Positions 6,108 through 17,393 of a stretch of 32,000 nucleotides of DNA are shown here, in pieces. The stretch is from Meiothermus sp. Pnk-1 (GTDB lineage Bacteria; Deinococcota; Deinococci; Deinococcales; Thermaceae): assembly GCF_003226535.1 (NCBI RefSeq), contig NZ_QKOB01000006.1, positions 55,136-87,135 on the forward strand, in the 5' to 3' direction. Made by a program: the position numbers and the translations under genes. The notes beneath the pieces were generated by a model. It was not told where the DNA came from. It saw only the letters and a program-made list of their open reading frames with translations, and did not search any database. The stretch's first letter is position 1; each line of letters opens with the position of its first letter.

Positions 6108-7811
6108 GTGTTCGCAGCTATCGAACAAATTGCGCTGGTGCTGCTGGTCATGACCGGGCTGGCCGTGGGGGTGGGGGCCTACTTAGCCCGGGTGTTTACC
6201 GCGAAGGGGCACTGGGGGGTGGAGCGGCTAACCTACCGCCTCCTGGGGATTGACCCAGCGGAGGAGATGGATTGGAAACGCTACGCCTTGGCGCTGGTGC
6301 TGAGCGACCTGATCATGATGCTCTCAGGCTACGCCCTGCTGCGCCTGCAGGGGCTGCTGCCCCTCAACCCCGCCCACCTGCCCCCGCAAAGCCCCGACCT
6401 GGCCTTCAATACCGCCGCCTCCTTCGTCACCAACACCAACTGGCAAAGCTACGCCGGGGAGACCAGCCTCTCCAACTTCAGCCAGATGGCGGTGATCACC
6501 TTCCTCATGTTCGTGAGCGCGGCCACCGGCTTTGCCGCCGGGGGGGCCTTCATCCGCGGCCTGAGCCGCACCGGGTTTGGCTGTATCGGGAACTTCTGGG
6601 TGGACTTCACCCGGGTGGTTTACCGGGTGATGCTCCCAGCGTGCTTTGTGCTGGCGCTGGTCTACGTGCAACAGGGGGTGCCGCAAACCCTGCAAGCCGA
6701 CGTAGTAGCGCATACCCTCGAGGGTTCCCCCCGGCGCATCGTCCTGGGGCCGGTGGCCAGCCTCGAGGCCATCAAACACCTGGGCACCAACGGCGGGGGG
6801 TTCTTCAACGCCAACGCCGCCCACCCCTACGAAAACCCCACCCCGCTGACCAACGCCCTGCACATCCTGGCCATGCTGCTCATCCCCTCCGCCCTGACCT
6901 ATACCCTCGGCAGCATGTTGGCTCGCCGGCGGCAGGGCTGGGTTTTCTTCGGCACCTTTTTGGTGATGTTCGTGGGCTTTCTCGCCTTGGTCTATAGCGC
7001 CGAGCAGTCGGGTAACCCCCTCTTGGAGCGGGTTGGAGCGGACCAACGCCTCAGCGAGGGCCAAAGCGGGGGGAACCTGGAGGGCAAGGAGGTGCGCTTT
7101 GGCATCACCCAAACTAGCCTCTTCATCACCACCACCACCGCCGCCACCACCGGCTCGGTGGACGCCATGCACGACTCCCTCACCCCCCTGGGCGGCCTGG
7201 TGCCCCTGGCCCAGATGATGCTCAACGTGGTCTTCGGCGGCAAGGGGGTGGGGCTCATTAACCTGGTGCAGTACGCGATTTTGGCGGTGTTCATCATCGG
7301 GCTCATGGTGGGGCGGACCCCGGAGTTCTTGGGGAAAAAGCTCGAGGCCCGCGAGGTCTCCCTCACCGTGCTGGCCTTGCTGGCCCACCCCGCCAGCATC
7401 CTGATCTTCACCGCGCTGGCCCTGGTCTGGCCGGGGGCCCTGGCCAGCCTGAACAACCCCGGAGCTCACGGGTTCAGCGAAGTGCTCTACGCCTACACCT
7501 CGGGCACGGCCAACAACGGTTCGGCCTTCGCCGGGCTCAACGCCAACACCCCCTTTTACAACACCACTATCGGCTTGGCCATGCTCTTGGGCCGCTTCCT
7601 CACCCTCTTGCCGCTGCTGGCGGTGGCTGGCTCGCTGGCCGCCAAACGCTCGGTACCCCAAACGGCGGGGAGCTTCTCCACCGAGACGGGGTTGTTTGGG
7701 GGCGTGCTGGTGTTGGTGATCCTGATGGTGGGGGGGCTAACCTTCTTCCCCGCTTTGGCCCTAGGGCCGATCGTGGAGCATTTGCAGATGCTCGCCGGGA
7801 AGACCTTTTAG
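6108..7811 (+). CDS. kdpA: K+-transporting ATPase subunit A
   Basis: 567 aa and polytopic. KdpA signatures [10 protein letters not shown] and [12 protein letters not shown] are present. GTG start follows AGGAGGGG. Confidence 0.95.
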
Positions 7812-7822
7812 GAGGTGGTGAA

Positions 7823-8410
7823 ATGCAAGCTTCCCTTCGTACGCTGTTGCGGCCTGCGGCAATGCTAACCCTATTGTTCATGCTGCTCACGGGCCTTGCG
7901 TATCCCCTGGCCACGGCGCTGGTGGCGAACTTCCTCTTTCCCTACCAGGCTGGGGGCAGCCTCATCCGTCAGGGAGGGCGGGTGGTGGGCTCGAGCCTCC
8001 TGGGCCAAGCCTTTACCTCGCCCCGCTACTTCCACCCGCGGCCCAGCGCCACGGCCCCGGAGCCCTACAACGCCGCCCAGAGCGGCGGCAGCAACCTGGG
8101 CCCGACCAACGCCAAGCTCGTCCAGGCGGTACAGGAACGGGTGCGGCAGTACCGGCAGGAAAACGGCCTGGCGGAGGGGGTGCCGGTGCCCGTAGACGCG
8201 GTCACGGCCTCGGGCTCAGGCCTGGACCCGCACATCTCCCTAGCCAATGCCGAGCTGCAAGCCCCGCGGGTGGCGAAGGCCCGAGGGCTGCCTGTGGAGC
8301 GGGTGCGGCAGCTCATCCGTGAGCACACCCAAGGGCGGCAGTTCGGCCTTTTGGGAGAGCCCAGGGTCAACGTGCTGGAGCTCAACCTGGCCCTGGACGG
8401 GGTACGCTAG
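7823..8410 (+). CDS. kdpC: K+-transporting ATPase subunit C
   Basis: 195 aa with an N-terminal membrane span, GSNLGPTN and [10 protein letters not shown] motifs, and an AGGAGG RBS. Confidence 0.9.
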
Positions 8411-8415
8411 GAGCC

Positions 8416-9528
8416 GTGGAACCGGCAGCCCCCGACCCAGAGCAGCTGCTCGAGGCCATCCTGAAAAGCGGCCGGGGCCGCCACAAGATCTACGTGGGGG
8501 CCGCCGCCGGGGTGGGCAAGACCTACCGGGCCTTGCAGGAGCTGCGCGAGCGCCTGGAGGCCGGGGTGGACGCGGTGGTGGGCTACCTGGAGACCCACGG
8601 GCGCCCCGACACCGCCCGCATGGCCGAGGGGTTGCCGGTCTTTCCGCGCAAACAGGTGGAGTACAAGGGGGTGGTCCTGCCGGAGATGGACCTGGAGGGG
8701 CTGCTCGCGCGCCGCCCGGCGCTGGTGCTGGTGGACGAGCTGGCCCATACCAACGCCCCCGGCTCCAAGAACGCCAAGCGCTACCAGGACGTGGAGGAAC
8801 TCTTGCAGGCGGGGATCAGCGTGATCTCCACCATGAACATCCAGCACCTGGAGTCCTTGAACGACCTGGTGGCCCGCCTCACCGGGGTGCGGGTGAAGGA
8901 GCGGGTCCCCGACCGGGTGCTCCTGGAGGCCGACGAGGTGATCCTGGTGGACGTGACCCCGGAGGTGCTCCAGGAGCGGCTCCGGGCGGGCAAGATCTAC
9001 CCCAAGGCCAAGATCGAGCAGGCCCTGGCCAACTTCTTCACCGCGGAGAACCTGGCCGTGCTGCGCGAGCTGGCCCTGCGCAGCGTGGCCGACAAGGTGG
9101 AGGAAGACGCCTCGGTGGGGGAGGACTCCCCGGCCCTCAAGGAGCGCATCGCGGTGGCGGTGACCCCCAGCCCCAAAGACGCCCTGCTCATCCGCCGCGG
9201 GGCCCGCATGGCCCAGCGGATGCGCGGCGAGCTGCACGTGGTGCACGTGAGAAACCGCCGCCTCTCGCGGGAGGAGGAGCGGGCGCTGGACAGCCACCGC
9301 ATCATCGCCGAGAGCCTCGAGGGGCGCTTTCATCGCCTCGAGGGCCGCGACGTGGCCCGGGCCCTGGCGGAGTTTGCCAAGGAATACGGCATCACCCAGC
9401 TGGTCTTGGGGGAGAACTCCAACCCCACTTGGCGCGACTTCTTCCGCATCTCCATCATCCAGCGGCTGATCTACCTCACCCACGATATCGACATCCATAT
9501 CATGGACCGGCGCCCCGAGGAATCCTAA
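8416..9528 (+). CDS. kdpD: kinase-less KdpD (KdpD N-terminal sensor domain plus Usp domain only)
   Basis: 370 aa. Walker-like GAAAGVGKTY, LVLVDELAHTNAPGS and ISTMNIQHLESLND match the KdpD N-terminal domain, followed by a Usp-like segment. There are no membrane spans and no HisKA or HATPase_c region. GTG start follows AGGAG. Confidence 0.85.
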   Translation: MEPAAPDPEQLLEAILKSGRGRHKIYVGAAAGVGKTYRALQELRERLEAGVDAVVGYLETHGRPDTARMAEGLPVFPRKQVEYKGVVLPEMDLEGLLARRPALVLVDELAHTNAPGSKNAKRYQDVEELLQAGISVISTMNIQHLESLNDLVARLTGVRVKERVPDRVLLEADEVILVDVTPEVLQERLRAGKIYPKAKIEQALANFFTAENLAVLRELALRSVADKVEEDASVGEDSPALKERIAVAVTPSPKDALLIRRGARMAQRMRGELHVVHVRNRRLSREEERALDSHRIIAESLEGRFHRLEGRDVARALAEFAKEYGITQLVLGENSNPTWRDFFRISIIQRLIYLTHDIDIHIMDRRPEES

Positions 9529-9560
9529 CGGCAGCCCGGCGACAAAGGGGATGCGATAGA

Positions 9561-9585
9561 CATCCTAAGTTATTTGTCAAGCCTC
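9561..9585. repeat. left att-like direct repeat (attL candidate)
   Basis: CATCCTAAGTTATTTGTCAAGCCTC aligns with 16036-16059 (CATCCTGAGAAATGTGTAAGACTC) at 19 of 24 columns with one 1-nt gap. Confidence 0.6.
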
Positions 9586-9594
9586 ATTTACAAC

Positions 9595-10503
9595 TCACCT
9601 AACACACACAGCCCACGCCGCGCGTGCTAAACGATGCGCCACTGCAACCAGGGCTAGCTTTTTAGGCTTGCCCGAGTCCACAAGGCGGCGATACAAAGCA
9701 GCTTGTACGGAGTCGGTACGGGTCGCGGCTGTCGCTGCGAGGTAGTAGCTAGCGCGGAGCATGGGCGGGCCAATGCGGGAGATACGGGCGCTAGCGTCCA
9801 TCTCTCCAGATTGGTAGATGCGCGGAGTAAGCCCGGTGTAAGCCGCGTACGCCCTCGCCGAGTGGAAGCGCCGCAGATCGCCCGAGTAGGCCAAGAGCTT
9901 TAGCGCGAGGGTGGGGCCAATGCCCGGCAGGGTTTGCAGGGCTGAAACCCACGAAGCAGCTAGTGGATATGCCGCAACAATGGCTCGTGCCTCAGCGTAC
10001 AGGGCAGCGCGTAACGACTGAATCGAATCAGGCACAGACAACGCAAACTCATGCACATGTGGGTGGGCGTAGCGCCAAGCGTGCAAGCGGTTGAGAGAGG
10101 CTGTGCGCTGCGTGTTCAGACCCTCGGCAAATCTGACCAGGAGCGAGGCCAGGTACAACGCCTCAGGCAACGGCTCATAAGGTGTGAGATCGGCTCGATA
10201 TTGAGCCAGAAAGCGGGCGAGTAGGCGAGCGTCCGCCTTATCGGTCTTATTGCGGGTGAGGAGTGATCTAGCGTAAGCCCGAACCTGCAAAGGGTTGACA
10301 ACGTAAACTGCGAACCCGGCCCGGTGTAAGGCGTAGGCCAAAGGCCGATAGTAGACCCCGGTAGCCTCCATCAGGACAGCCGCATCAGCAGGCAATCGTG
10401 AAACTAGCGCAGCTATGCCGTCATACGTGTTTGGAAACTGTAGCAACTCATCTGCTATAGCTACGTCCAAGCGAGAGCGGGAGATGTCAACGCCAACAAA
10501 CAT
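9595..10503 (-). CDS. IS110-family transposase (DEDD RuvC-like domain plus C-terminal Tnp domain)
   Basis: 302 aa. MFVGVDIS (Asp), VLMEATGVYY (Glu), NKTDKADARLLA (Asp, Asp), C-terminal LPGIGPTLALKLL and YQSGE (conserved Ser). Confidence 0.9.
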   Translation of the reverse strand: MFVGVDISRSRLDVAIADELLQFPNTYDGIAALVSRLPADAAVLMEATGVYYRPLAYALHRAGFAVYVVNPLQVRAYARSLLTRNKTDKADARLLARFLAQYRADLTPYEPLPEALYLASLLVRFAEGLNTQRTASLNRLHAWRYAHPHVHEFALSVPDSIQSLRAALYAEARAIVAAYPLAASWVSALQTLPGIGPTLALKLLAYSGDLRRFHSARAYAAYTGLTPRIYQSGEMDASARISRIGPPMLRASYYLAATAATRTDSVQAALYRRLVDSGKPKKLALVAVAHRLARAAWAVCVR

Positions 10504-10554
10504 AAGTAGGGCGCGGGAGCCCTACGGCACTCTTACACGCGACCAAAAAGGCCA

Positions 10555-10563
10555 ACATCCTAA
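10555..10563. repeat. internal copy of the att core (ACATCCTAA)
   Basis: Exact 9-mer shared with 9560-9568. It starts 52 nt upstream of the transposase ATG. AGGCCAA precedes it and recurs at 10602-10608. Confidence 0.5.
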
Positions 10564-10606
10564 ACGCCCATAGGCTAGGCCACGCTATCGCACGACCACG
10601 CAGGCC

Positions 10607-10617
10607 AAGACTCTTGA
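10607..10617. repeat. 11-mer identical to the host flank next to asnS
   Basis: AAGACTCTTGA at 10607-10617 equals 16053-16063 exactly and is in the same orientation. Confidence 0.5.
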
Positions 10618-10642
10618 CGACCAAACCCGCGCCCAGCACAGA

Positions 10643-10873
10643 CTAACGCCTGTATCCCCTAGGACGCAACTTGGGTTGATAGGGGCAGGGGCCAGAATAG
10701 CGACAGATGCGCCGCCCCTCACGCAGAGCAGCCACCTCAAGGGTATTCAGAGGCTCACGGCAACGAGTACAGCGAACACGGGTATCAGGTTGCAGGGAGC
10801 GCCCAGGGCCAGCTAGAGAGCGAATCATCCAGCCTATCCAGAGGATCACCAGCAGGAGCAGGAGCAGGCTCAC
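10643..10873 (-). CDS. small membrane protein (pXI-like anchor?) with a Cys-rich tail, overlapping the zot 3' end in the +1 frame
   Basis: GTG-initiated 76-aa ORF. It has an N-terminal membrane span SLLLLLLVILWIGWMI followed by CxxC...Cx5C. It overlaps zot by 89 nt. No clear RBS. Confidence 0.4.
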   Translation of the reverse strand: MSLLLLLLVILWIGWMIRSLAGPGRSLQPDTRVRCTRCREPLNTLEVAALREGRRICRYSGPCPYQPKLRPRGYRR

Positions 10874-11714
10874 ACGGAGATTCTAACCGCTCACGCAGCA
10901 GATCATGCGGTTGTTTGCCCTCACGGTAGGCACTCGCTAGGTCGGAGATGGAGAGATGAGGCATCCCATCCCGAGGCCCCGGAGCATCACGACGGCCCCG
11001 GAGCTTGGATGCGTCCCAGGCTAGGCCCATCCGGTCAAAGATGGCCCGCTTTTTCGGGTCTAGCTCACGCTGGAGCCGGACTATAGGCGGCTCAAAAATC
11101 GCGTATGTGTCGTAACACGCCGCCGCCATCGGATCGAGGGCCACAACGTCATTACGCGCTACGCCCTCGAAGATGCCCTTGGCCTGACGTTGCATCATGC
11201 CGATGGACTCATCCATGATGGACGTGTAGCGCAGAAGTTTCCGCCCGCGCACCCAGGGATACGTAATCACGCGGAGCCAGAACGGAGCCGGACGCGCCCA
11301 GAAGACGAAGGCTACCAGATCGCGCACAATCGCATCCACCGAGCCGTAGCGCTGTGTAGCTAGCAGCACGTCCACGCCTGTCTTGCGATGCTGGCTCCAG
11401 AACGCGATGACCTCGACCGGGATTAGGTCAAACTGACGCGAGGGAAGCCACATATGGGCCTCGTCAAACAGTAGCAGGCCATCATGGACGTTGAGCAGTT
11501 CGTTATAGTCCCGTATCTCCCGGATACTATCAGCCCTCAGAACCGCTTCCCGATGATCCAACTTGGCGCGGAAACGAAGCCAGTAATAGACATTTTCCCT
11601 AATAAAGCCGAAATTGGCCCATACGGTACGCCCCCGAGCCAAGGCGTGAAGGCCGCGATGGACGAGCATGTAACTCTTTCCAGAGCCGGGAATGCCGATG
11701 TACGCCTCGATCAT
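10785..11714 (-). CDS. zot: Zot / pI-like inovirus assembly ATPase
   Basis: Walker A GIPGSGKS at the N-terminus, Walker B LLLFDEAH and QHRKTGVDVLLATQ (Zot-family pattern). ATGA overlap with the upstream gene. No membrane span in this frame. Confidence 0.85.
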   Translation of the reverse strand: MIEAYIGIPGSGKSYMLVHRGLHALARGRTVWANFGFIRENVYYWLRFRAKLDHREAVLRADSIREIRDYNELLNVHDGLLLFDEAHMWLPSRQFDLIPVEVIAFWSQHRKTGVDVLLATQRYGSVDAIVRDLVAFVFWARPAPFWLRVITYPWVRGRKLLRYTSIMDESIGMMQRQAKGIFEGVARNDVVALDPMAAACYDTYAIFEPPIVRLQRELDPKKRAIFDRMGLAWDASKLRGRRDAPGPRDGMPHLSISDLASAYREGKQPHDLLRERLESPCEPAPAPAGDPLDRLDDSLSSWPWALPAT

Positions 11715-12139
11715 CTACCCCCCCTGATAAAGGTGATGGCTCGCCAGAGTGCCATGAGCCCGTAAAATCCCGCCCAGGCCGAGCCGAGCGTAAGGGCCTC
11801 ACTGATCGGCAGTATTTGGTTAGCCGTGTTGAAGGCCCCTATAGCAGTAGAGGCCCAACCAGGCGGGTCGGGGGGCATAGCCGGGAGCAGGCCAACTAGG
11901 ATACTGAGGAAGCCAGTAACCAGCTTGACCACGCCCGCGATAAGCCAGCCGATGAGCCCTAGGCCCCATTCCAACAACTGATGCAGGAGCCCTAGACCCC
12001 AGTTCAAGACGGCAAGGACAAGCCCCCAGACCCAGCCCCAGACCGTTTGAACGATGCCAACGAACCAGCCCGTCAGGGCGGAGAACGTGCCCTGGAACCA
12101 ATCGAGGATTGAGCGGAGTGCGTTTAGGATTATCTGCAT
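11711..12139 (-). CDS. pVI-like polytopic minor coat/assembly protein
   Basis: 142 aa, Trp/Gly/Leu-rich with several membrane spans. It lies immediately upstream of zot and is coupled to it, the position held by gene VI or DUF2523-type genes in inoviruses. Confidence 0.6.
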   Translation of the reverse strand: MQIILNALRSILDWFQGTFSALTGWFVGIVQTVWGWVWGLVLAVLNWGLGLLHQLLEWGLGLIGWLIAGVVKLVTGFLSILVGLLPAMPPDPPGWASTAIGAFNTANQILPISEALTLGSAWAGFYGLMALWRAITFIRGGR

Positions 12140-12152
12140 ATCTCCCCCCTAC

Positions 12153-12357
12153 TCACATGCTCATTCGCCCGCTGCGCGAGAGTGTACGGTGAGGCCCCGG
12201 CCTACGCGCAAGGGTCCGCTTCGCCGCGCCCGCATGTCCAAACCCCGGCTTCCTGCGTGCAGTAAACGTGCGTGATGTGGTGCAGCGTGCGCGCCCTTGC
12301 GCTACGGCCACCCCACCGGATAAGGATTGTTGCAGCGGGCGAAAAAATAGCATGTGA
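12153..12357. repeat. long imperfect inverted repeat filling the pIII-like / pVI-like intergenic region
   Basis: TCACATGCT (12153-61) pairs with AGCATGTGA (12349-57). TCGCCCGCTGC (12165-75) pairs with GCAGCGGGCGA (12332-42). GCGCAAGGG (12206-14) pairs with CCCTTGCGC (12294-302). The arm spacings are similar. Confidence 0.6.
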
Positions 12358-13812
12358 TTAGCGCTGTACATCCAACCCCCGGCGCACGATGGTAAATCCG
12401 AACGTCAGCAAGAGCCCGCCCAGCATGAAGGGGCGTAGTTGCGTTGCGGCTTGCCAGACGGGATTGCCGCAGATGTTGACGGTAGCCGACCACTGACCGA
12501 TTGTTAGCTGAGGAGCCGGACAGCCCCCGCTATCGCTGGTGGACGGAGTACGGAGCCAGCGCACGACACCAAACGGAAACTTGTCCATAGCTTGCTGCTT
12601 GAGTTGCTCTATGGACTCTCGCATAGACTGCATAGCCTGATCCCACGGCGTTTGCTGTAGCTGCGGAGCCTGGAACTGAGGCAATGTGGGATCATTGGGC
12701 TTTTGCAGACCCGGCAGGGAAGGAGTGCCCGGAGGCCCCGGCCACGTCAGATCATCCTTAGGTTGCTCATTCGTACACTTCGAGGCTGGATCACGCGGAT
12801 CCGAGCCGCAGCGTAACTCTTGATCATCCGGAAAGCCGTCCCCGTCGGAATCCGTGCCGGGATCTTTCCCAGGCTTAGAGTTAGGATCATAAGGATCCGT
12901 CCCCGCCTGCTTTTCCTCCTGATTCGTGTATCCGTCCCCGTCGTCGTCCCGATTCGGATCAGGATGGGAGTTAGGATCATTGATCCCGTCAGGCCAAGGG
13001 CGCTGTTTCTCCATCCAGTCAGGCCAGCCGTCGCCGTCGGTATCCACTGACTTATCGGTATACGGATTATCCGTCCATTGATTCGGATTAGGCACAGGAT
13101 CGAGGCGCACCCCAGGATAGGGATTAGACGGAGAGCCGGGCGGCGTGTCCTGAATGTAGCGAGCGACAGCCGCTTTGACTCCCTCAGCCGCGTCGGGATG
13201 CGACTGCAAAAACTCCGGGAGCGTCTCTGGCGGATGCTTAGGCATCGTTGACTTTTCGACGCGCTCGACTCCATCAGGATAATGCAGCTTAGCGTTGCGT
13301 TGCCACTCGTAGCGATAGCCATATTGGGACTTCAGATACTGCTCGCACTGCAACAAGAGTTGCTCCTGAGTCCCGCCGGGGCCGCGAAACGAATGAGTAT
13401 AGGGCGGATCAGTGGAGCGCACGTAAGGGGTTGCCCCCAGAACAGAACAGCGAACCTCGCCCATTTGCCAATCATAATCAGGAGGGATGTACTGAACTCC
13501 GACTATGACGGCTTCCCAGTCATAGAGTAAATGTGACGCCCACGCGTCCAACGACGTCCCAGTTTGCTGCTTGAGGGACTCGTAAAAATAGTTAAGGGCT
13601 GTATAAATAAGCGTAGATCCTAGGATTATTGCGCCGCCCCAGCGCACATAGCGCCCGAACGTTGCCTGTTTAGCGAACTGATTGTTACTCCACTGCAAAA
13701 TCTCGTTATACGTCATCCCCTGCACAGTAGTCCTAACAACATCCTGCACAGGAGCCGCGAACGAAAAGGCCCCGGCGACCAGGGCCAGGGCCAAGAATCG
13801 CCGGAGCCGCAT
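12358..13812 (-). CDS. pIII-like adsorption/minor coat protein with thrombospondin type-3 (Ca-binding) repeats
   Basis: The start is moved to ATG 13812, giving signal peptide MRLRRFLALALVAGAFSFA. Three DxDxDGxxDxxE repeats are present (DTDGDGWPDWME, DDDGDGYTNQEE, DSDGDGFPDDQE). A C-terminal hydrophobic anchor (FMLGGLLLTFGFTIV) is followed by RRG. It sits directly after the coat gene. Confidence 0.65.
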   Translation of the reverse strand: MRLRRFLALALVAGAFSFAAPVQDVVRTTVQGMTYNEILQWSNNQFAKQATFGRYVRWGGAIILGSTLIYTALNYFYESLKQQTGTSLDAWASHLLYDWEAVIVGVQYIPPDYDWQMGEVRCSVLGATPYVRSTDPPYTHSFRGPGGTQEQLLLQCEQYLKSQYGYRYEWQRNAKLHYPDGVERVEKSTMPKHPPETLPEFLQSHPDAAEGVKAAVARYIQDTPPGSPSNPYPGVRLDPVPNPNQWTDNPYTDKSVDTDGDGWPDWMEKQRPWPDGINDPNSHPDPNRDDDGDGYTNQEEKQAGTDPYDPNSKPGKDPGTDSDGDGFPDDQELRCGSDPRDPASKCTNEQPKDDLTWPGPPGTPSLPGLQKPNDPTLPQFQAPQLQQTPWDQAMQSMRESIEQLKQQAMDKFPFGVVRWLRTPSTSDSGGCPAPQLTIGQWSATVNICGNPVWQAATQLRPFMLGGLLLTFGFTIVRRGLDVQR

Positions 13813-13826
13813 AGAAGCCCCCCGGA

Positions 13827-14048
13827 TTAGCCCTTGAGGAACTTCTTGGCGTAGCGCCAAGCCGCGCTGAGGCCGATAGTGAGCGCGAGCACGCCCACGC
13901 CAGCAGCAGCGATGCCGCCGATGTAGGTCATGACGCCCGTAGCGACCTGCCCAGCATTGAAGCTGGCATCTTCAGCAAACGCCCCAGCTAGCACGAGAGG
14001 AGCAGCCAAGGCAACCGAACGACCGACAAACACGCGCAGTTTCTCCAT
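13827..14048 (-). CDS. inovirus major coat protein (pVIII-like)
   Basis: 73 aa. Signal peptide ...LVLAGAFA | EDASFNAGQ, then an acidic mature N-terminus, a hydrophobic core and a basic C-terminus (RYAKKFLKG). GGAGGTG RBS. Confidence 0.8.
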   Translation of the reverse strand: MEKLRVFVGRSVALAAPLVLAGAFAEDASFNAGQVATGVMTYIGGIAAAGVGVLALTIGLSAAWRYAKKFLKG

Positions 14049-14080
14049 AGAACACCTCCATTGCCCACGGGCGATGCCCG

Positions 14081-14182
14081 TTAGAGCCTACGTAACACGG
14101 AGCGCAGGACCGAGGCCACCAGGCCAGCCCCTAGCCCCCACCAGAAGGCCTCAGCGATAAAGCGCCAGTCACCCGCAGTCAT
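14081..14182 (-). CDS. 33-aa hydrophobic peptide (pVII/pIX-like minor coat candidate; absent from the ORF track)
   Basis: MTAGDWRFIAEAFWWGLGAGLVASVLRSVLRRL. ATGA overlap with the upstream mini-ORF. Confidence 0.5.
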   Translation of the reverse strand: MTAGDWRFIAEAFWWGLGAGLVASVLRSVLRRL

Positions 14183-14283
14183 ACACGCCTAAACAGATTG
14201 CCGCCGTAGCGATACGCGGCTAAAAACGCGTAGGGAGCCGTGACCAACGCGAGAACCTTGAGGAACCAATCGAAAGGCTCCAT
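14179..14283 (-). CDS. 34-aa hydrophobic peptide (pVII/pIX-like minor coat candidate; absent from the ORF track)
   Basis: MEPFDWFLKVLALVTAPYAFLAAYRYGGNLFRRV. TAATG overlap with the upstream mini-ORF. Confidence 0.5.
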   Translation of the reverse strand: MEPFDWFLKVLALVTAPYAFLAAYRYGGNLFRRV

Positions 14284-14375
14284 TAGAAATCCCCCGCGAG
14301 AAGTCCCGCAATCATGCCGAGTCCGAAGGCCCAGACCTTGAAGCACTCGATCATGAAGACGGGATCAAGGGTCAT
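14283..14375 (-). CDS. 30-aa hydrophobic peptide (pVII/pIX-like minor coat candidate; absent from the ORF track)
   Basis: MTLDPVFMIECFKVWAFGLGMIAGLLAGDF. TAATG overlap with the stop of the 96-aa ORF. Confidence 0.5.
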   Translation of the reverse strand: MTLDPVFMIECFKVWAFGLGMIAGLLAGDF

Positions 14376-14665
14376 TAGGCTTTCTCCTTTACCGGAGCAA
14401 GTGGAGCCACAAACCGTGCCACCGTGACGAATTGTCGCGCGCTGTTTTTCTCGCGGAACCCATCCCTGACGCGCAAATCAATTTGCAGGTCATAGAGGCC
14501 CGGAAACGTGGGCATAGTCGCCACTACATCAGGATCCGCGTCAAGTTCAAGCACGTTCATCCCGCGGAACTCCGCATCCGTGGGCGTAGTGGCTACTAAA
14601 ACCTTGCCAAACCTGCGCCCATCCTTAGCCGTCCTAGCGCTTGCTCCAAGTACCATTAGGGTCAT
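14375..14665 (-). CDS. putative ssDNA-binding protein (gene V-like), assigned by position and size only
   Basis: 96-aa ORF with an AGGAGGA RBS, directly downstream of rep as in Ff phages. No motif recognised. Confidence 0.35.
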   Translation of the reverse strand: MTLMVLGASARTAKDGRRFGKVLVATTPTDAEFRGMNVLELDADPDVVATMPTFPGLYDLQIDLRVRDGFREKNSARQFVTVARFVAPLAPVKEKA

Positions 14666-14710
14666 ATATCCTCCTATATCGCGTTAGAAGTGCCGATAGG
14701 CACGCGATAC

Positions 14711-15394
14711 CTACACAACAGCCCCCGCGTAGCGATGGAACGCCCGAGAGTAGGACTCCCGGAACCGCGCCTTATCCAGTACCGGCAAATCCTCGGGAGC
14801 CAAACCGACTAAATAGCGAACACGCCGGAGCCACGCCAGGAGCACAGACGGTGTAGGGGCGTGATGATGCAGGCCGAGCGACGCAGCAGCGGAAACGATG
14901 CAACCGATGGCCTGAGTCAACAACTGAGGAACACTAGCCAACGGCGAGCGAGCACAACGGACTACCTGAGCAGTCCCCGAGGAGTCGGGAGCGTCAAAGG
15001 CAGACAACACAAGTCGCCAGAGAGGATCAAACGGACGATTGCGGATTGTTTGAGTGTCCGAATCCTCACGCAGAGAGAGCCAAGAGCCCGCCAAATAGCG
15101 CCAGATAGCCGGGAGATGTTCCGCGAGGGTGTACCAGTTGCGCAGATCGCCCGCCCCTACATCCATAGTTGACAGAGCATCCGCCCTAATCTGGAACTCG
15201 ACGCGGATCACGTGCCCGCTGGGGTTGCCGTAGCCCGCAAGAGTGAGCTTAGCGCCGTAATCCGTGCGCGCCTGTATCGTCTTCGAGTAGATACGTGCTA
15301 GCAAATCGCCGGAGCCGAAACGAAACCCGGACCAGTTAGGCCCCCGGTAGTGAACCTCAACAGGGTGTACCTCATAGGCGGGTACCTCGTGCAT
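14711..15394 (-). CDS. rolling-circle replication initiator (Rep_trans-like), C-terminal part of a split gene
   Basis: Contains GDLLARIYSKT, resembling the catalytic-Tyr R-I-Y-x-K motif of pT181 RepC / RstA-type initiators. Deleting one 11-bp repeat copy joins it to 15298-16038. Confidence 0.6.
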   Translation of the reverse strand: MHEVPAYEVHPVEVHYRGPNWSGFRFGSGDLLARIYSKTIQARTDYGAKLTLAGYGNPSGHVIRVEFQIRADALSTMDVGAGDLRNWYTLAEHLPAIWRYLAGSWLSLREDSDTQTIRNRPFDPLWRLVLSAFDAPDSSGTAQVVRCARSPLASVPQLLTQAIGCIVSAAASLGLHHHAPTPSVLLAWLRRVRYLVGLAPEDLPVLDKARFRESYSRAFHRYAGAVV

Positions 15395-16038
15395 AGCGAC
15401 CCCCGTGTTACCCCCGTGTTACCCGTAAGGGGGTCGCCGTGGCTGCCCCCACGGCTGGCCGCTGGCGCGCCCAGCGCGTGGGAGCCATCCAGGTAGACCG
15501 ACCGCGAGCGAGCCCGCGAAACGAAACGCCCTAGGTCATCCAGGCTGAGGGGTGTATCCACCTCGACATCCGCAAACAAGTCAATACGCGACACTTGGAC
15601 GCGCTCAGGCTCAACTCCGACAAGATAGCTGAGGGTATCGGAAAACATAGCAACCACAGCCATAGGGTCACGGGCGCAAGCCGCCATGTATCGACCCGAT
15701 ACTTCCACGTAGGCGTGTACCTGTCCGGGTTTACAGGTAGTGGGCCGAGGCTGAGTGAGGGAGATCGAGAACATGCCCCCTTGAAACATCAACATCCAGC
15801 GGAACTTTCGCCCAGGCCGTACCTGTGCCACCTCGTAGGCGCAGCGCTCGTCATCATCCCCTAGAGGATTCCAAAGCCACATGTAATCGTGAATCCCGAG
15901 AAAGTGAGCATCCCCCTCTTCCCGGTACTCGTCTAGCGCCGCATCCAATCGCGCGGTGAAGTCCTCGGGAAGGCGGTAGTTTTGGCCCCAGGAAAGCCAG
16001 AAGATAAAGGTGTCTGTTCCGCTGGCTAATAGCTTCAT
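15298..16038 (-). CDS. rolling-circle replication initiator (Rep_trans-like), N-terminal part of a split gene
   Basis: Contains VSRIDLFADVEV (R-x-D-L-A-x-D-type motif). After the 11-bp duplication the frame runs on for about 40 out-of-frame codons. Confidence 0.6.
   Translation of the reverse strand: MKLLASGTDTFIFWLSWGQNYRLPEDFTARLDAALDEYREEGDAHFLGIHDYMWLWNPLGDDDERCAYEVAQVRPGRKFRWMLMFQGGMFSISLTQPRPTTCKPGQVHAYVEVSGRYMAACARDPMAVVAMFSDTLSYLVGVEPERVQVSRIDLFADVEVDTPLSLDDLGRFVSRARSRSVYLDGSHALGAPAASRGGSHGDPLTGNTGVTRGSLCTRYPPMRYTLLRFTTGGLTGPGFVSAPAIC
15400..15421. repeat. perfect 11-bp tandem duplication (CCCCCGTGTTA x2) inside rep
   Basis: Read directly at 15400-15410 and 15411-15421. It lies in the loop of the hairpin GCGACCCCC (15396-404) / GGGGGTCGC (15429-437). 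Confidence 0.9.
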
Positions 16039-16059
16039 CCTGAGAAATGTGTAAGACTC
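16036..16059. repeat. right att-like direct repeat (attR candidate)
   Basis: CATCCTGAGAAATGTGTAAGACTC. Its first three bases are the complement of the rep ATG. Confidence 0.6.
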
Positions 16060-16067
16060 TTGAAGGT

Positions 16068-17393
16068 ATGCGACGGGTGTTCATCGAGGAGATCAGCCAG
16101 CACCAAGGACAGGAAGTGCTCATCCGCGGCTGGGTTACGGGACGGCGCAGCAAGGGCAAGATCCACTTCCTCACCCTGCGTGACGGGACCGGCTTCCTCC
16201 AGGCCACGGTGTTCAAAGGAGAACTTCCCGACGAAGAGTTCGAGCAGGCCGACCACCTGCCCCAGGAGGCCGCCCTCGAGGTGGCGGGGCTGGTGCGCTC
16301 CGACCCGCGCGCTCCAGGAGGCTTCGAGCTTTCGGTCAGGAGCCTGAAGGTCATCAGCCTGCCCAGCCGGGAATACCCCATCACCCCCAAGGAGCACGGG
16401 GTGGACTTTTTGATGGATCACCGCCATCTCTACTTGCGCCACCGCCGCCCTTGGGCCGTGCTACGGATACGCGACGAGCTCGAGCGGGCCATCCACGACT
16501 TCTTCCACGCGCGGGGCTTCATTCGCCTCGACGCTCCCATCCTCACCCCCAACGCCGTCGAGGGCACCACCGACCTCTTCGAGGTGGACCTCTTCGACGG
16601 GGAAAAGGCGTATCTCTCGCAATCGGGGCAGCTCTACGCCGAGGCCGGGGCCATGGCCTTCGGCAAGGTCTACACCTTCGGCCCCACCTTCCGCGCCGAG
16701 CGGAGCAAAACCCGCCGCCACCTGCTGGAGTTCTGGATGATCGAGCCCGAGGTGGCCTTCATGACCCACGAGGAGAACATGCAGCTCCAGGAGGAGCTGG
16801 TGGCCTATCTGGTGGGGCGGGTGCTGGAGGAGAAGAAGCTCGAGCTGCAGGTGCTCGAGCGCGACACCACCGTGCTGGAGAGGAGCGCGCAGGGGGGCTA
16901 CCCCCGTATCCACTACTCCAAAGCCGTGGAGATGGTGAATAAGATCGCCCAGGAGCGACCCGAACTGGGGCTCGAGCCCCTGCCGTGGGGCGACGACTTC
17001 GGCGCCCCCCACGAGGCCGCCCTGAGCAGCCAGTTCGACCGCCCGATCTTCGTCGAGAAGTACCCCGCGGCGGTAAAGGCCTTCTACATGCAGCCCGACC
17101 CGGAGGACCCCCGGCTGGTCCTGAACGCCGACATGCTCGCCCCGGAGGGGGTGGGCGAGATCATCGGCGGCAGCCAGCGCATCCACGACCCCGAGCTGCT
17201 GCGGCAGAAGATCCGCGAGCACGGCCTGCCCGAGGAGGTCTTCGACTGGTACATGGACCTGCGGCTCTTCGGCACGGTGCCTCACTCAGGCTTCGGGATC
17301 GGCCTCGAGCGCACCGTGCGCTGGATTTGCGGCATCGAGCACATCCGCGAGGCCATCCCCTTCCCCCGGATGTACACCCGGATGCGGCCTTAG
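16068..17393 (+). CDS. asnS: asparagine--tRNA ligase
   Basis: Class II aaRS motifs are present ([35 protein letters not shown]). The start is set at [10 protein letters not shown] (16068) by resemblance to Thermus AsnRS as remembered. The track ORF begins at 16047. Confidence 0.93.

Follow-up and report, generated by a model that had tools for sequence, protein, structure and literature searches.

A filamentous prophage of Meiothermus sp. Pnk-1 with a candidate bridge RNA matching its attachment sites

IS621 is the enzyme for which bridge RNAs were defined. In the IS621 arrangement the target loop of the RNA comes first, and the strands of the loops match the flanks of the recombining sites with the core included (Durrant 2024, PMC11208160). 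Enzymes of the wider IS110 family have also been met beside larger loads: in cargo-bearing IS110 loci a recombinase and its bridge RNA mobilise several kilobases, and matches between cargo and phage references have been noted (bioRxiv 10.64898/2026.08.14.744561), while for the Neisseria Nf/MDA-phi filamentous prophages the phage's own IS110-family transposase has been proposed to carry out integration (Kawai 2005, as cited in passages of PMC11437467 and PMC4763002). Here we describe a block of phage genes between kdpD and asnS in a 32,000-nucleotide (nt) stretch of Meiothermus sp. Pnk-1 (contig NZ_QKOB01000006.1; this whole stretch is called the window, and positions refer to it). With a probability that we put at about 0.85, the block is the prophage of a Thomixvirus-like filamentous phage that entered the chromosome by RNA-guided (bridge) recombination.

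The closest described phages are those of Thermus. Filamentous virions containing single-stranded DNA (ssDNA) have been shown for phiOH3, Zuza8 and Zuza27 (PMC4763002 and passages of PMC11437467). The phiOH3 sequence has been available since 2016, when homologues were noted in the T. aquaticus and M. timidus genomes (PMC4763002), and the first-pass annotation of the window is not supported in calling filamentous phages of this phylum barely characterised. It had also held that an integrated copy with its own recombinase would be unusual; proviruses whose two ends carry an endonuclease gene and an IS110 transposase gene, respectively, were described in 2024 and compared with Neisseria Nf in passages of PMC11437467, and since this kind of provirus is already published, the argument for novelty fails. 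Those passages ascribe integration to the transposase and mention no guide RNA, although the paper was not searched for the term 'bridge RNA'. The prophage itself is a divergent new member of this published group. The only phage records with DNA similarity to it are phiOH16, phiOH3, Zuza8 and Zuza27 (Thomixvirus, Paulinoviridae), at 70-72% over 13-28% of the query.

Prophage ends and the RNA gene that matches them

An empty kdpD-asnS junction, looked for in close relatives, was found as a 43-nt gap in GCA_004152925.1 and in one Logan assembly, both with an identical AsnS of 441 amino acids (aa), showing that the block is strain-specific. The empty-site alignment (...GATGCGATAGAC on one side of the break, TCTTGAAGGTATG on the other) and the tetramer AGAC (minus-strand GTCT), which is found at each junction (9558-9561, 16054-16057) as well as in the empty site, together place the insert at 9562-16057, or 6,496 bp including one copy of the shared bases. 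The limits first given, 9561-16059, fall within 1-2 nt of these junctions, and the location between kdpD and asnS was right. So was the view that the block is compositionally foreign: G+C content is 58.8% in the insert against 68.4% in the left flank and 65.0% in the right, and the earlier hand counts for 12841-12900, 13561-13620 and 8461-8520 (55%, 40% and 73.3%) are exact. The insertion point lies 10 nt upstream of the asnS start codon (ATG 16068), with kdpD on the other side; gene II occupies the asnS end of the prophage and the recombinase gene the kdpD end. A tRNA or dif-type attachment site was considered and rejected, the window holding no tRNA and the crossover identity being only 4 nt.

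Two observations concern asnS itself. Because the insertion point is 10 nt before its start codon, the prophage separates the gene from everything upstream. The asnS reading on record is that of 441 aa from 16068; a 448-aa reading from 16047 is not on record.

Read in the orientation of the phage, attL is TCAAGA-GTCT-TACACA, with the ATG of gene II 9 nt further on, and attR is TTAGGAT-GTCT-ATCGCA, 33 nt past the recombinase stop codon. Joining the phage ends in a circle, the presumable form of this copy before insertion, gives the predicted attP TTAGGATGTCTTACAC, and restoring the host site gives the empty attB TCAAGAGTCTATCGCA. The core was assigned to CT from the register of the right-hand guides described below. 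The elements involved are as follows, all on the minus strand.

9552-9557: right half of the chromosomal target, ATCGCA; host sequence on the kdpD side, to which the target loop's 3' strand is the reverse complement, present also in the empty site of L041/L042
9558-9561: attR junction GTCT, with the CT core at 9558-9559; 4 nt common to both junctions and the empty site
9560-9594: right end of the phage, with the left donor half TTAGGATGT at 9560-9568 and a perfect TTGACA at 9575-9580
9595-10503: IS110-family recombinase, RNA-guided by homology, 302 aa; Pfam DEDD_Tnp_IS110 (PF01548) 2.6e-23 and Transposase_20 (PF02371) 9.9e-23
10506-10634: candidate bridge RNA gene, ~130 nt, assigned from its scaffold, its consensus fold and guides matching both junctions
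10607-10617, 10594-10606 and 10582-10593: left guide, hairpin and right guide of the target loop
10554-10564, 10541-10553 and 10530-10540: left guide, hairpin and right guide of the donor loop
10506-10525: 3' stem of the RNA
16048-16057: attL junction GTCT at 16054-16057, with the CT core at 16054-16055 and the right donor half, a -10-like TACACA, at 16048-16053
16056-16063: left half of the chromosomal target, TCAAGAGT; host DNA, lying in the TCAAGAGTCT match with the target loop

The recombinase matches the NCBIfam model NF033542, 'IS110 family RNA-guided transposase', with 204.7 bits against a cut-off of 140. Its residues 2-299 align with the IS621 transposase (PDB 8wt6, E=3e-36), and it also aligns with ISCro4; the alignment sets its D, E, D..D and SG motifs against their IS621 counterparts, with the catalytic residues numbered as in PMC11208158. 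It is 59% identical to the phiOH16 transposase. By this homology the protein is an RNA-guided IS110 enzyme, which the first-pass annotation had overlooked.

Equally unnoticed was the candidate bridge RNA gene, which lies between the ATPase and recombinase genes, upstream of the latter. The spacer between these genes is ~280 nt long in most of the 16 elements with this arrangement (range 211-283; 281 nt in the window). Its last ~130 nt hold a scaffold that reads GG(C/T)CG, 11 nt, GGCC-loop-GGTC, 12 nt and GGCC, and continues through a linker into the donor arm, where 11 nt, GGCC-loop-GGTC, 11 nt and TGC(C/A) are followed by the 3' stem and the start codon; written as a regular expression, it matches 22 loci. 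Before the RNA stands a box that reads TAGAAT in relatives and TAGTCT in the window. A consensus fold computed with RNAalifold from 11 distinct sequences has two arms, each with an internal loop of ~10x10 nt between invariant stems, and 96.6% of its cells are paired, compared with 42-59% when the partners are slid. The single-sequence fold of the window RNA is different and more compact, and the family consensus was preferred to it.

The four variable stretches of the scaffold, TCAAGAGTCTT, GTGCGATAGCGT, TTTAGGATGTT and GCGTGTAAGAG in the window, carry the matches to the junctions. The target loop carries TCAAGAGTCT on its 5' strand, which repeats the left target flank with the core in the sense direction, and TGCGATAG on its 3' strand, which is complementary, in reverse, to the core with the right target flank. 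In the donor loop, TTAGGATGT repeats the phage's right end in the sense direction, and GTGTAAGA reads as the reverse complement of what comes after the core at the phage's left end. These exact words of 10, 8, 9 and 8 nt are in the correct places and on the correct strands, and each has exactly two copies in the window, one of them in the RNA gene and the other at the junction that it matches; chance would give 0.03, 0.60, 0.06 and 0.19 occurrences, respectively.

Guides and junctions in related elements

Relatives were gathered from metagenome contigs and by exact-protein look-ups; a scan of species representatives gave only three distant loci. The metagenome contigs of ~6.8 kb were considered as closed circles and rejected as such, since they have no terminal overlap and are prophages with short flanks. 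Three relatives, L043, L044 and L046, with 93-95% DNA identity to the window, carry the same guides, the same attL and the same attR. Their right flank differs from that of the window beyond 12 nt and is without the kdp operon: comparing L043 (9690-10900) with the window (8400-9557), the kdp operon and the two-component genes are absent, and after the same 12-nt right target half come three small genes, one with a helix-turn-helix domain.

The pair L045/L047 is 92% identical to the window overall, and its 281-nt spacer differs at 4 bases only, all of them in the target-loop guides: three in the left guide (TCAAGAGTCTT to TGGATAGTCTT) and one in the right (TGCGATAGCG to TGCGGTAGCG). In agreement with the changed guide, the right junction of L045 reads GTCT-ACCGCA, beside an agmatinase gene. 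From the L045 RNA alone we predicted the empty site GGATAGTCTACCGCA, which was in neither the window nor the loci previously in hand, and found it exactly in 9 of the 10 contigs that carry the same agmatinase (99% identical, Allomeiothermus silvanus), between the agmatinase and peptidyl-prolyl isomerase genes.

We also built composite att sites from the loops of 11 guide sets and searched for them in all loci. The circular genomes of phiOH16, Zuza8 and Zuza27 each contain their own attP (0-1 mismatch) and neither attL nor attR; attL and/or attR, with 0-2 mismatches, were found in the integrated copies that have flanks, and attP in none of these; and the attB of the window was found without mismatch in both empty loci. 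Cross-matches of composite sites occur almost entirely among relatives with similar guides. The targets derived from the loops are GGGGTAAG-CT-TTGGGA for Zuza8 and CCAGTATA-CT-TTCCCA for phiOH16. The right target guide has an AG that pairs with the core, and 3' of it come two bases, AC in relatives and CG in the window; the AC is complementary to the donor GT, as the handshake rule (PMC11208158) would suggest.

The donor site varies in its orientation relative to the recombinase gene, being direct in phiOH16 (L001 1130-1144) and in the window lineage and inverted in Zuza8 and Zuza27 (L003 946-960, L004 947-961) and in most metagenome relatives. Either way, it is found between gene II and the recombinase gene, and TTGACA stands upstream of it. 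The genome of phiOH3 (L002) is that of phiOH16 less 838 bp (100-937); the deletion takes the donor loop together with ~756 nt from the start of the recombinase gene, of which the final 156 nt survive, as do the target loop and attP.

A sister clade of Thermaceae inovirus prophages (L006, L007, L029-L035) has an ATPase ~65% identical and, on the opposite strand, a recombinase 42% identical. The end of these prophages is ~55 nt upstream of the recombinase gene, and a conserved structured non-coding region follows downstream. There, CAATCTA is followed by a variable hexamer; in L006, L033, L034 and L035 this hexamer is the host flank's reverse complement, as it is with one mismatch in L030. The clade appears to follow the same strategy with an IS1111-type (seekRNA) layout, the putative RNA lying downstream of the gene.

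We propose that an RNA of ~130 nt would be made from the spacer upstream of the recombinase gene in a replicative form that is circular and double-stranded and measures 6,496 bp. Its first internal loop would pair with the chromosomal site TCAAGAGT-CT-ATCGCA, 10 nt upstream of asnS, and its second with TTAGGATGT-CT-TACAC, the joining site of the phage, which has the recombinase gene on one side and gene II on the other. Strand exchange by the recombinase at the shared CT would then leave gene II on the asnS side and the recombinase gene on the kdpD side.

The same crossover may act on a promoter. In the rebuilt circle junction of the window, TTGACA stands 17 nt upstream of TACACA, and this rebuilt attP and the actual attP sites of phiOH16, Zuza8 and Zuza27 all have a perfect TTGACA 17-18 nt upstream of TAnnn[T/A], a hexamer that directly follows the 4-bp crossover motif (GTCT; AGAC with an inverted donor) and stops 7-11 nt short of the ATG of gene II. 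Integration places the two hexamers apart. It would in this way split a promoter that spans the crossover and drives gene II, and phage replication would be off in the integrated state and back on after excision.

For this lineage of filamentous phages of thermophiles as a whole, the evidence tips us, by a little, towards a broader view: that a bridge RNA and an IS110 recombinase serve as a lysogeny module, with the site written in ~18 nt of RNA, guides that are rewritten in nature (four bases move the site, upstream of asnS in the window, to a place downstream of agmatinase) and an off switch that works by splitting a promoter.

State of this copy, objections and the other phage genes

The open reading frames (ORFs) listed in the first-pass annotation are all present on the minus strand. 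Its description of a complete inovirus module holds for the gene order II-V-VII-IX-VIII-III-VI-I and for the module's own recombinase; 'complete' does not, since an 11-bp duplication frameshifts the replication gene.

14711-16038, minus strand: replication initiator gene II, split into 15298-16038 and 14711-15394, which match phrog_33635 at profile positions 1-204 and 217-396

The profile phrog_33635 is an 'endonuclease' profile of 446 positions. The frameshift is due to a tandem duplication of GGGTAACACGG (minus strand) at 15403-15413 and 15414-15424, which leaves ORFs of 246 aa and 227 aa; L043, 96% identical, has a single copy of the 11-mer and an intact product of 438 aa. The intact rolling-circle initiator that relatives possess is accordingly missing from the window copy. 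The initiator had been called Rep_trans-like, and this stands as to the predicted fold and falls as to the Pfam model: neither the intact homologue nor either half gave a Pfam family, Rep_trans PF02486 included, even at E<=10, and the replication protein had no sequence match in the PDB. An AlphaFold model of P0159, a 67%-identical homologue (pLDDT 74.9, pTM 0.72), was matched by Foldseek to 4cij (E=4e-9) and to 4cwe and 4cwc (~1e-6 to 1e-7), with probability 1.00. These structures are rolling-circle initiators of the Rep_trans group, and the modelled protein has the predicted fold of pT181/RepD-type initiators.

With gene II frameshifted, this copy is presumably unable to replicate as it stands. 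We find it rather probable that it is a defective, immobilised remnant that neither replicates nor makes virions, whatever mechanism placed it; the gene is split where that of L043 is intact, and the 246-aa fragment is found in the public genome record too, as a hypothetical protein in an annotation that names the ATPase and transposase as such. Yet the remaining genes, the RNA and the recombinase gene are all open and conserved, tandem duplications can revert precisely, and the duplication could be an assembly error. Excision driven by the recombinase is in any case independent of gene II.

Several points weigh against entry of the prophage by RNA-guided recombination. With near-invariant stems beside the loops, the RNA shows weak base-pair covariation: just 4 pairs have changes in both partners. 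Rfam gave no match, either at E<=1 on 9000-17000 or at gathering scores on the whole window, so the RNA is not a curated family in that release. We infer from sequence that the RNA is transcribed, that the recombinase binds it and that recombination needs it; a consensus promoter scan of the integrated state found no sigma-70-like site around the RNA gene or gene II, and the -10-like hexamer of the window, TACACA, is a poor one. The 10-nt left target match of the window lineage occupies loop positions 1-10, with an extra U before the stem, whereas in relatives the core CT is at positions 10-11; the shift, by one position towards 5', is common to both window-lineage members. Opposite the core C the left donor guide has its terminal U, and it leaves the core T uncovered; in every left donor guide a final UU stands where the donor has TCT. 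In L018, the junctions (70-85, 6733-6747) match L015-type guides perfectly and the element's own target loop with 2+2 mismatches; a chimeric assembly, a guide change after integration or the action of another phage's RNA in trans are possible explanations. Finally, with gene II broken, this copy may never yield virions.

It could be supposed that the matches between spacer and junctions act as DNA, for example as protein-binding copies of the att sites, and not as an RNA guide. The RNA is a predicted one, and arm-type repeats are common in phage att regions. We regard this as highly unlikely, because the matches fall in both strands of the internal loops of a conserved stem-loop scaffold, show the sense/antisense asymmetry and the loop order of the IS621 bridge RNA, and lie directly upstream of a full-length homologue of a structurally characterised RNA-guided enzyme. 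Least probable is that the IS110 gene is a passenger insertion sequence and the phage integrated by other means (host XerCD, homologous recombination): IS110 elements are common, often within mobile DNA, and phiOH3 infects and makes plaques without the transposase gene (passages of PMC11437467), but the donor loop specifies the ends of the whole 6.5-kb insert and not those of a 1.2-kb insertion sequence, no second junction is found near the end of the ATPase gene, the recombinase module has the same place in virion-derived genomes, and the crossover identity is merely 4 nt.

Besides gene II and the recombination module, the prophage contains the following features, all on the minus strand.

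10785-11714: assembly ATPase pI/Zot ('IV' in the phiOH3 record); Pfam Zot 7e-14, phrog_20922 4.6e-137
11711-12139: minor coat protein VI homologue, 142 aa, hydrophobic; phrog_37052 1e-29, syntenic with phiOH3 gene VI
12140-12357: non-coding spacer of 218 nt between genes III and VI, a long hairpin as ssDNA
12358-13812: adsorption protein III homologue, ~484 aa from the ATG at 13812; phrog_36046 1e-98, Pfam TSP3_bac 3.9e-15
13827-14048: major coat protein VIII precursor, 73 aa; phrog_33753 3.7e-17
14081-14182: third small hydrophobic ORF, 33 aa, ..AFWWGLGAGLVASVLRSVLRRL; conserved in phiOH3, Zuza8, Zuza27, L020 and L043
14179-14283: gene IX, 34 aa; homologous small ORF at the same place in phiOH3, Zuza8 and Zuza27
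14283-14375: gene VII, 30 aa; homologous small ORF at the same place in phiOH3, Zuza8 and Zuza27
14375-14665: gene V position, 96 aa; phrog_38435 1.3e-15, 38-46% identical to gene V of the Thermus phages

PHROG profiles match seven gene products, namely those of the replication gene (both halves), V, the coat gene, III, VI, the ATPase gene and the transposase gene. Pfam matches are confined to Zot, the gene III TSP3 repeats and the pair of IS110 transposase domains; the replication protein, the coat protein, the small ORFs and the products of genes V and VI drew no match from either Pfam or NCBIfam. The Zot assignment made on first inspection was upheld by the profile search, the PF05707 match of 7e-14 being above the cut-off. 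The ATPase is 82.6% identical to the phiOH3 and phiOH16 proteins and 77-83% across the four Thermus phages; the other proteins are 36-59% identical to their Thermus-phage counterparts, in the same order. By tblastn the order II-V-VII-IX-VIII-III-VI-I is colinear with all four phages, whose genomes measure 5,688-6,773 bp against 6,496 bp for the insert.

The coat protein has a signal peptide, a hydrophobic core and a basic C-terminus, and its residues 29-73 align with the 46-aa major coat protein of PH75 (PDB 1hgv, E=6.4e-15). Protein III has a signal peptide, TSP3 repeats and a C-terminal anchor; the L043 product is called at 482 aa. The N-terminal part of gene III (13224-13559) has no DNA-level alignment with L043, elsewhere 93-95% identical, which is consistent with a swapped receptor-binding domain. 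The 96-aa product at the gene V position, assigned by that position only, is presumed to be an ssDNA-binding protein. Start and stop codons of the three small ORFs (30, 34 and 33 aa) overlap, and the 33-aa ORF at 14081-14182, strongly conserved, is absent from the GenBank annotation of phiOH3, Zuza8 and Zuza27. As ssDNA the spacer at 12140-12357 folds up as a single long, imperfect hairpin (-59.8 kcal/mol, z=-4.69), a stability that 0 of 200 shuffles reached, and it holds the nested inverted repeats I5, I18 and I19; it is a candidate packaging signal or (complementary-strand) origin.

A further frame at 10643-10873 (minus strand), 76 aa from a GTG, overlaps the 3' end of the ATPase gene in the +1 frame. 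It is kept in 11 of the 11 distinct relatives checked, most copies being without an ATG, and its product, for which Pfam has no family, has a hydrophobic segment and a CxxC..C..CPY(D/Q)P..RR motif. The ATPase tail beneath it is poorly conserved, and the stop codon of the overlapping frame falls inside the TAGAAT box upstream of the RNA in relatives. The frame may encode a separate pXI-like membrane protein, or a frameshift extension supplying the missing membrane anchor of pI.

Significance and comparison with known systems

If the proposed mechanism is true, a natural virus picks its chromosomal site by a programmable guide RNA. The bridge RNA would account for the choice of attachment site by these phages; the site of any relative would be readable from about 20 nt of RNA, and one such prediction was confirmed above. 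The sister phages offer a natural instance of guide reprogramming, and a promoter split by the crossover suggests a simple switch for lysogeny. The family would also be a source of thermostable bridge recombinases with their cognate RNAs, donors and targets, and these matched sets, from organisms of 55-75 C, could find use in bridge-recombinase engineering. Full-text literature searches, whose coverage is incomplete and which are not proof of novelty, found no paper joining a bridge RNA to the integration of a filamentous phage, inovirus or prophage.

The nearest system in mechanism is IS621 and its IS110 relatives (PMC11208160, PMC11208158), with which the window shares a full-length homologous recombinase, an RNA encoded upstream of it, a target loop followed by a donor loop, and a CT core. 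The window may also share the meeting, in the circle only, of a -35 element on the right end with a -10 element on the left end. In the window ~5.3 kb of phage genes separate the RNA gene from the left end, which is a difference, and the putative junction promoter would point towards gene II instead of the RNA and recombinase genes. Its RNA is ~130 nt long against 177 nt, and its left donor guide stops at the first core base, unlike that of IS621; in the sister phages, moreover, the donor site can be inverted relative to the gene. Set beside the cargo-bearing IS110 loci, the 'cargo' here is a complete virus genome, one that infected cells have also yielded as the replicative form of phages that make plaques; bioRxiv 10.64898/2026.08.14.744561 contains none of the terms filamentous, inovir-, Thermus and Neisseria. 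The Neisseria Nf/MDA-phi prophages, like the window, have an IS110-family transposase gene at one end and insert site-specifically, although they belong to an unrelated phage lineage and host; this comparison draws on the citing papers.

Ff phages (M13/fd/f1) have the same module order II-V-VII-IX-VIII-III-VI-I, a small coat protein and a Zot-type ATPase. Unlike them, the window prophage is without the secretin gene IV and its initiator has a Rep_trans-like predicted fold; sequence similarity is undetectable outside the ATPase, and Ff phages do not integrate. Closest of all are the Thermus phages, with the same protein set, an IS110 gene between the ATPase gene and gene II, and the same RNA scaffold upstream of the transposase gene, and the proviruses in passages of PMC11437467, with an endonuclease gene at one end and a transposase gene at the other, as in the window. 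What sets the window copy apart from the Thermus phages is its Meiothermus host, its different guides and target, and its broken gene II.

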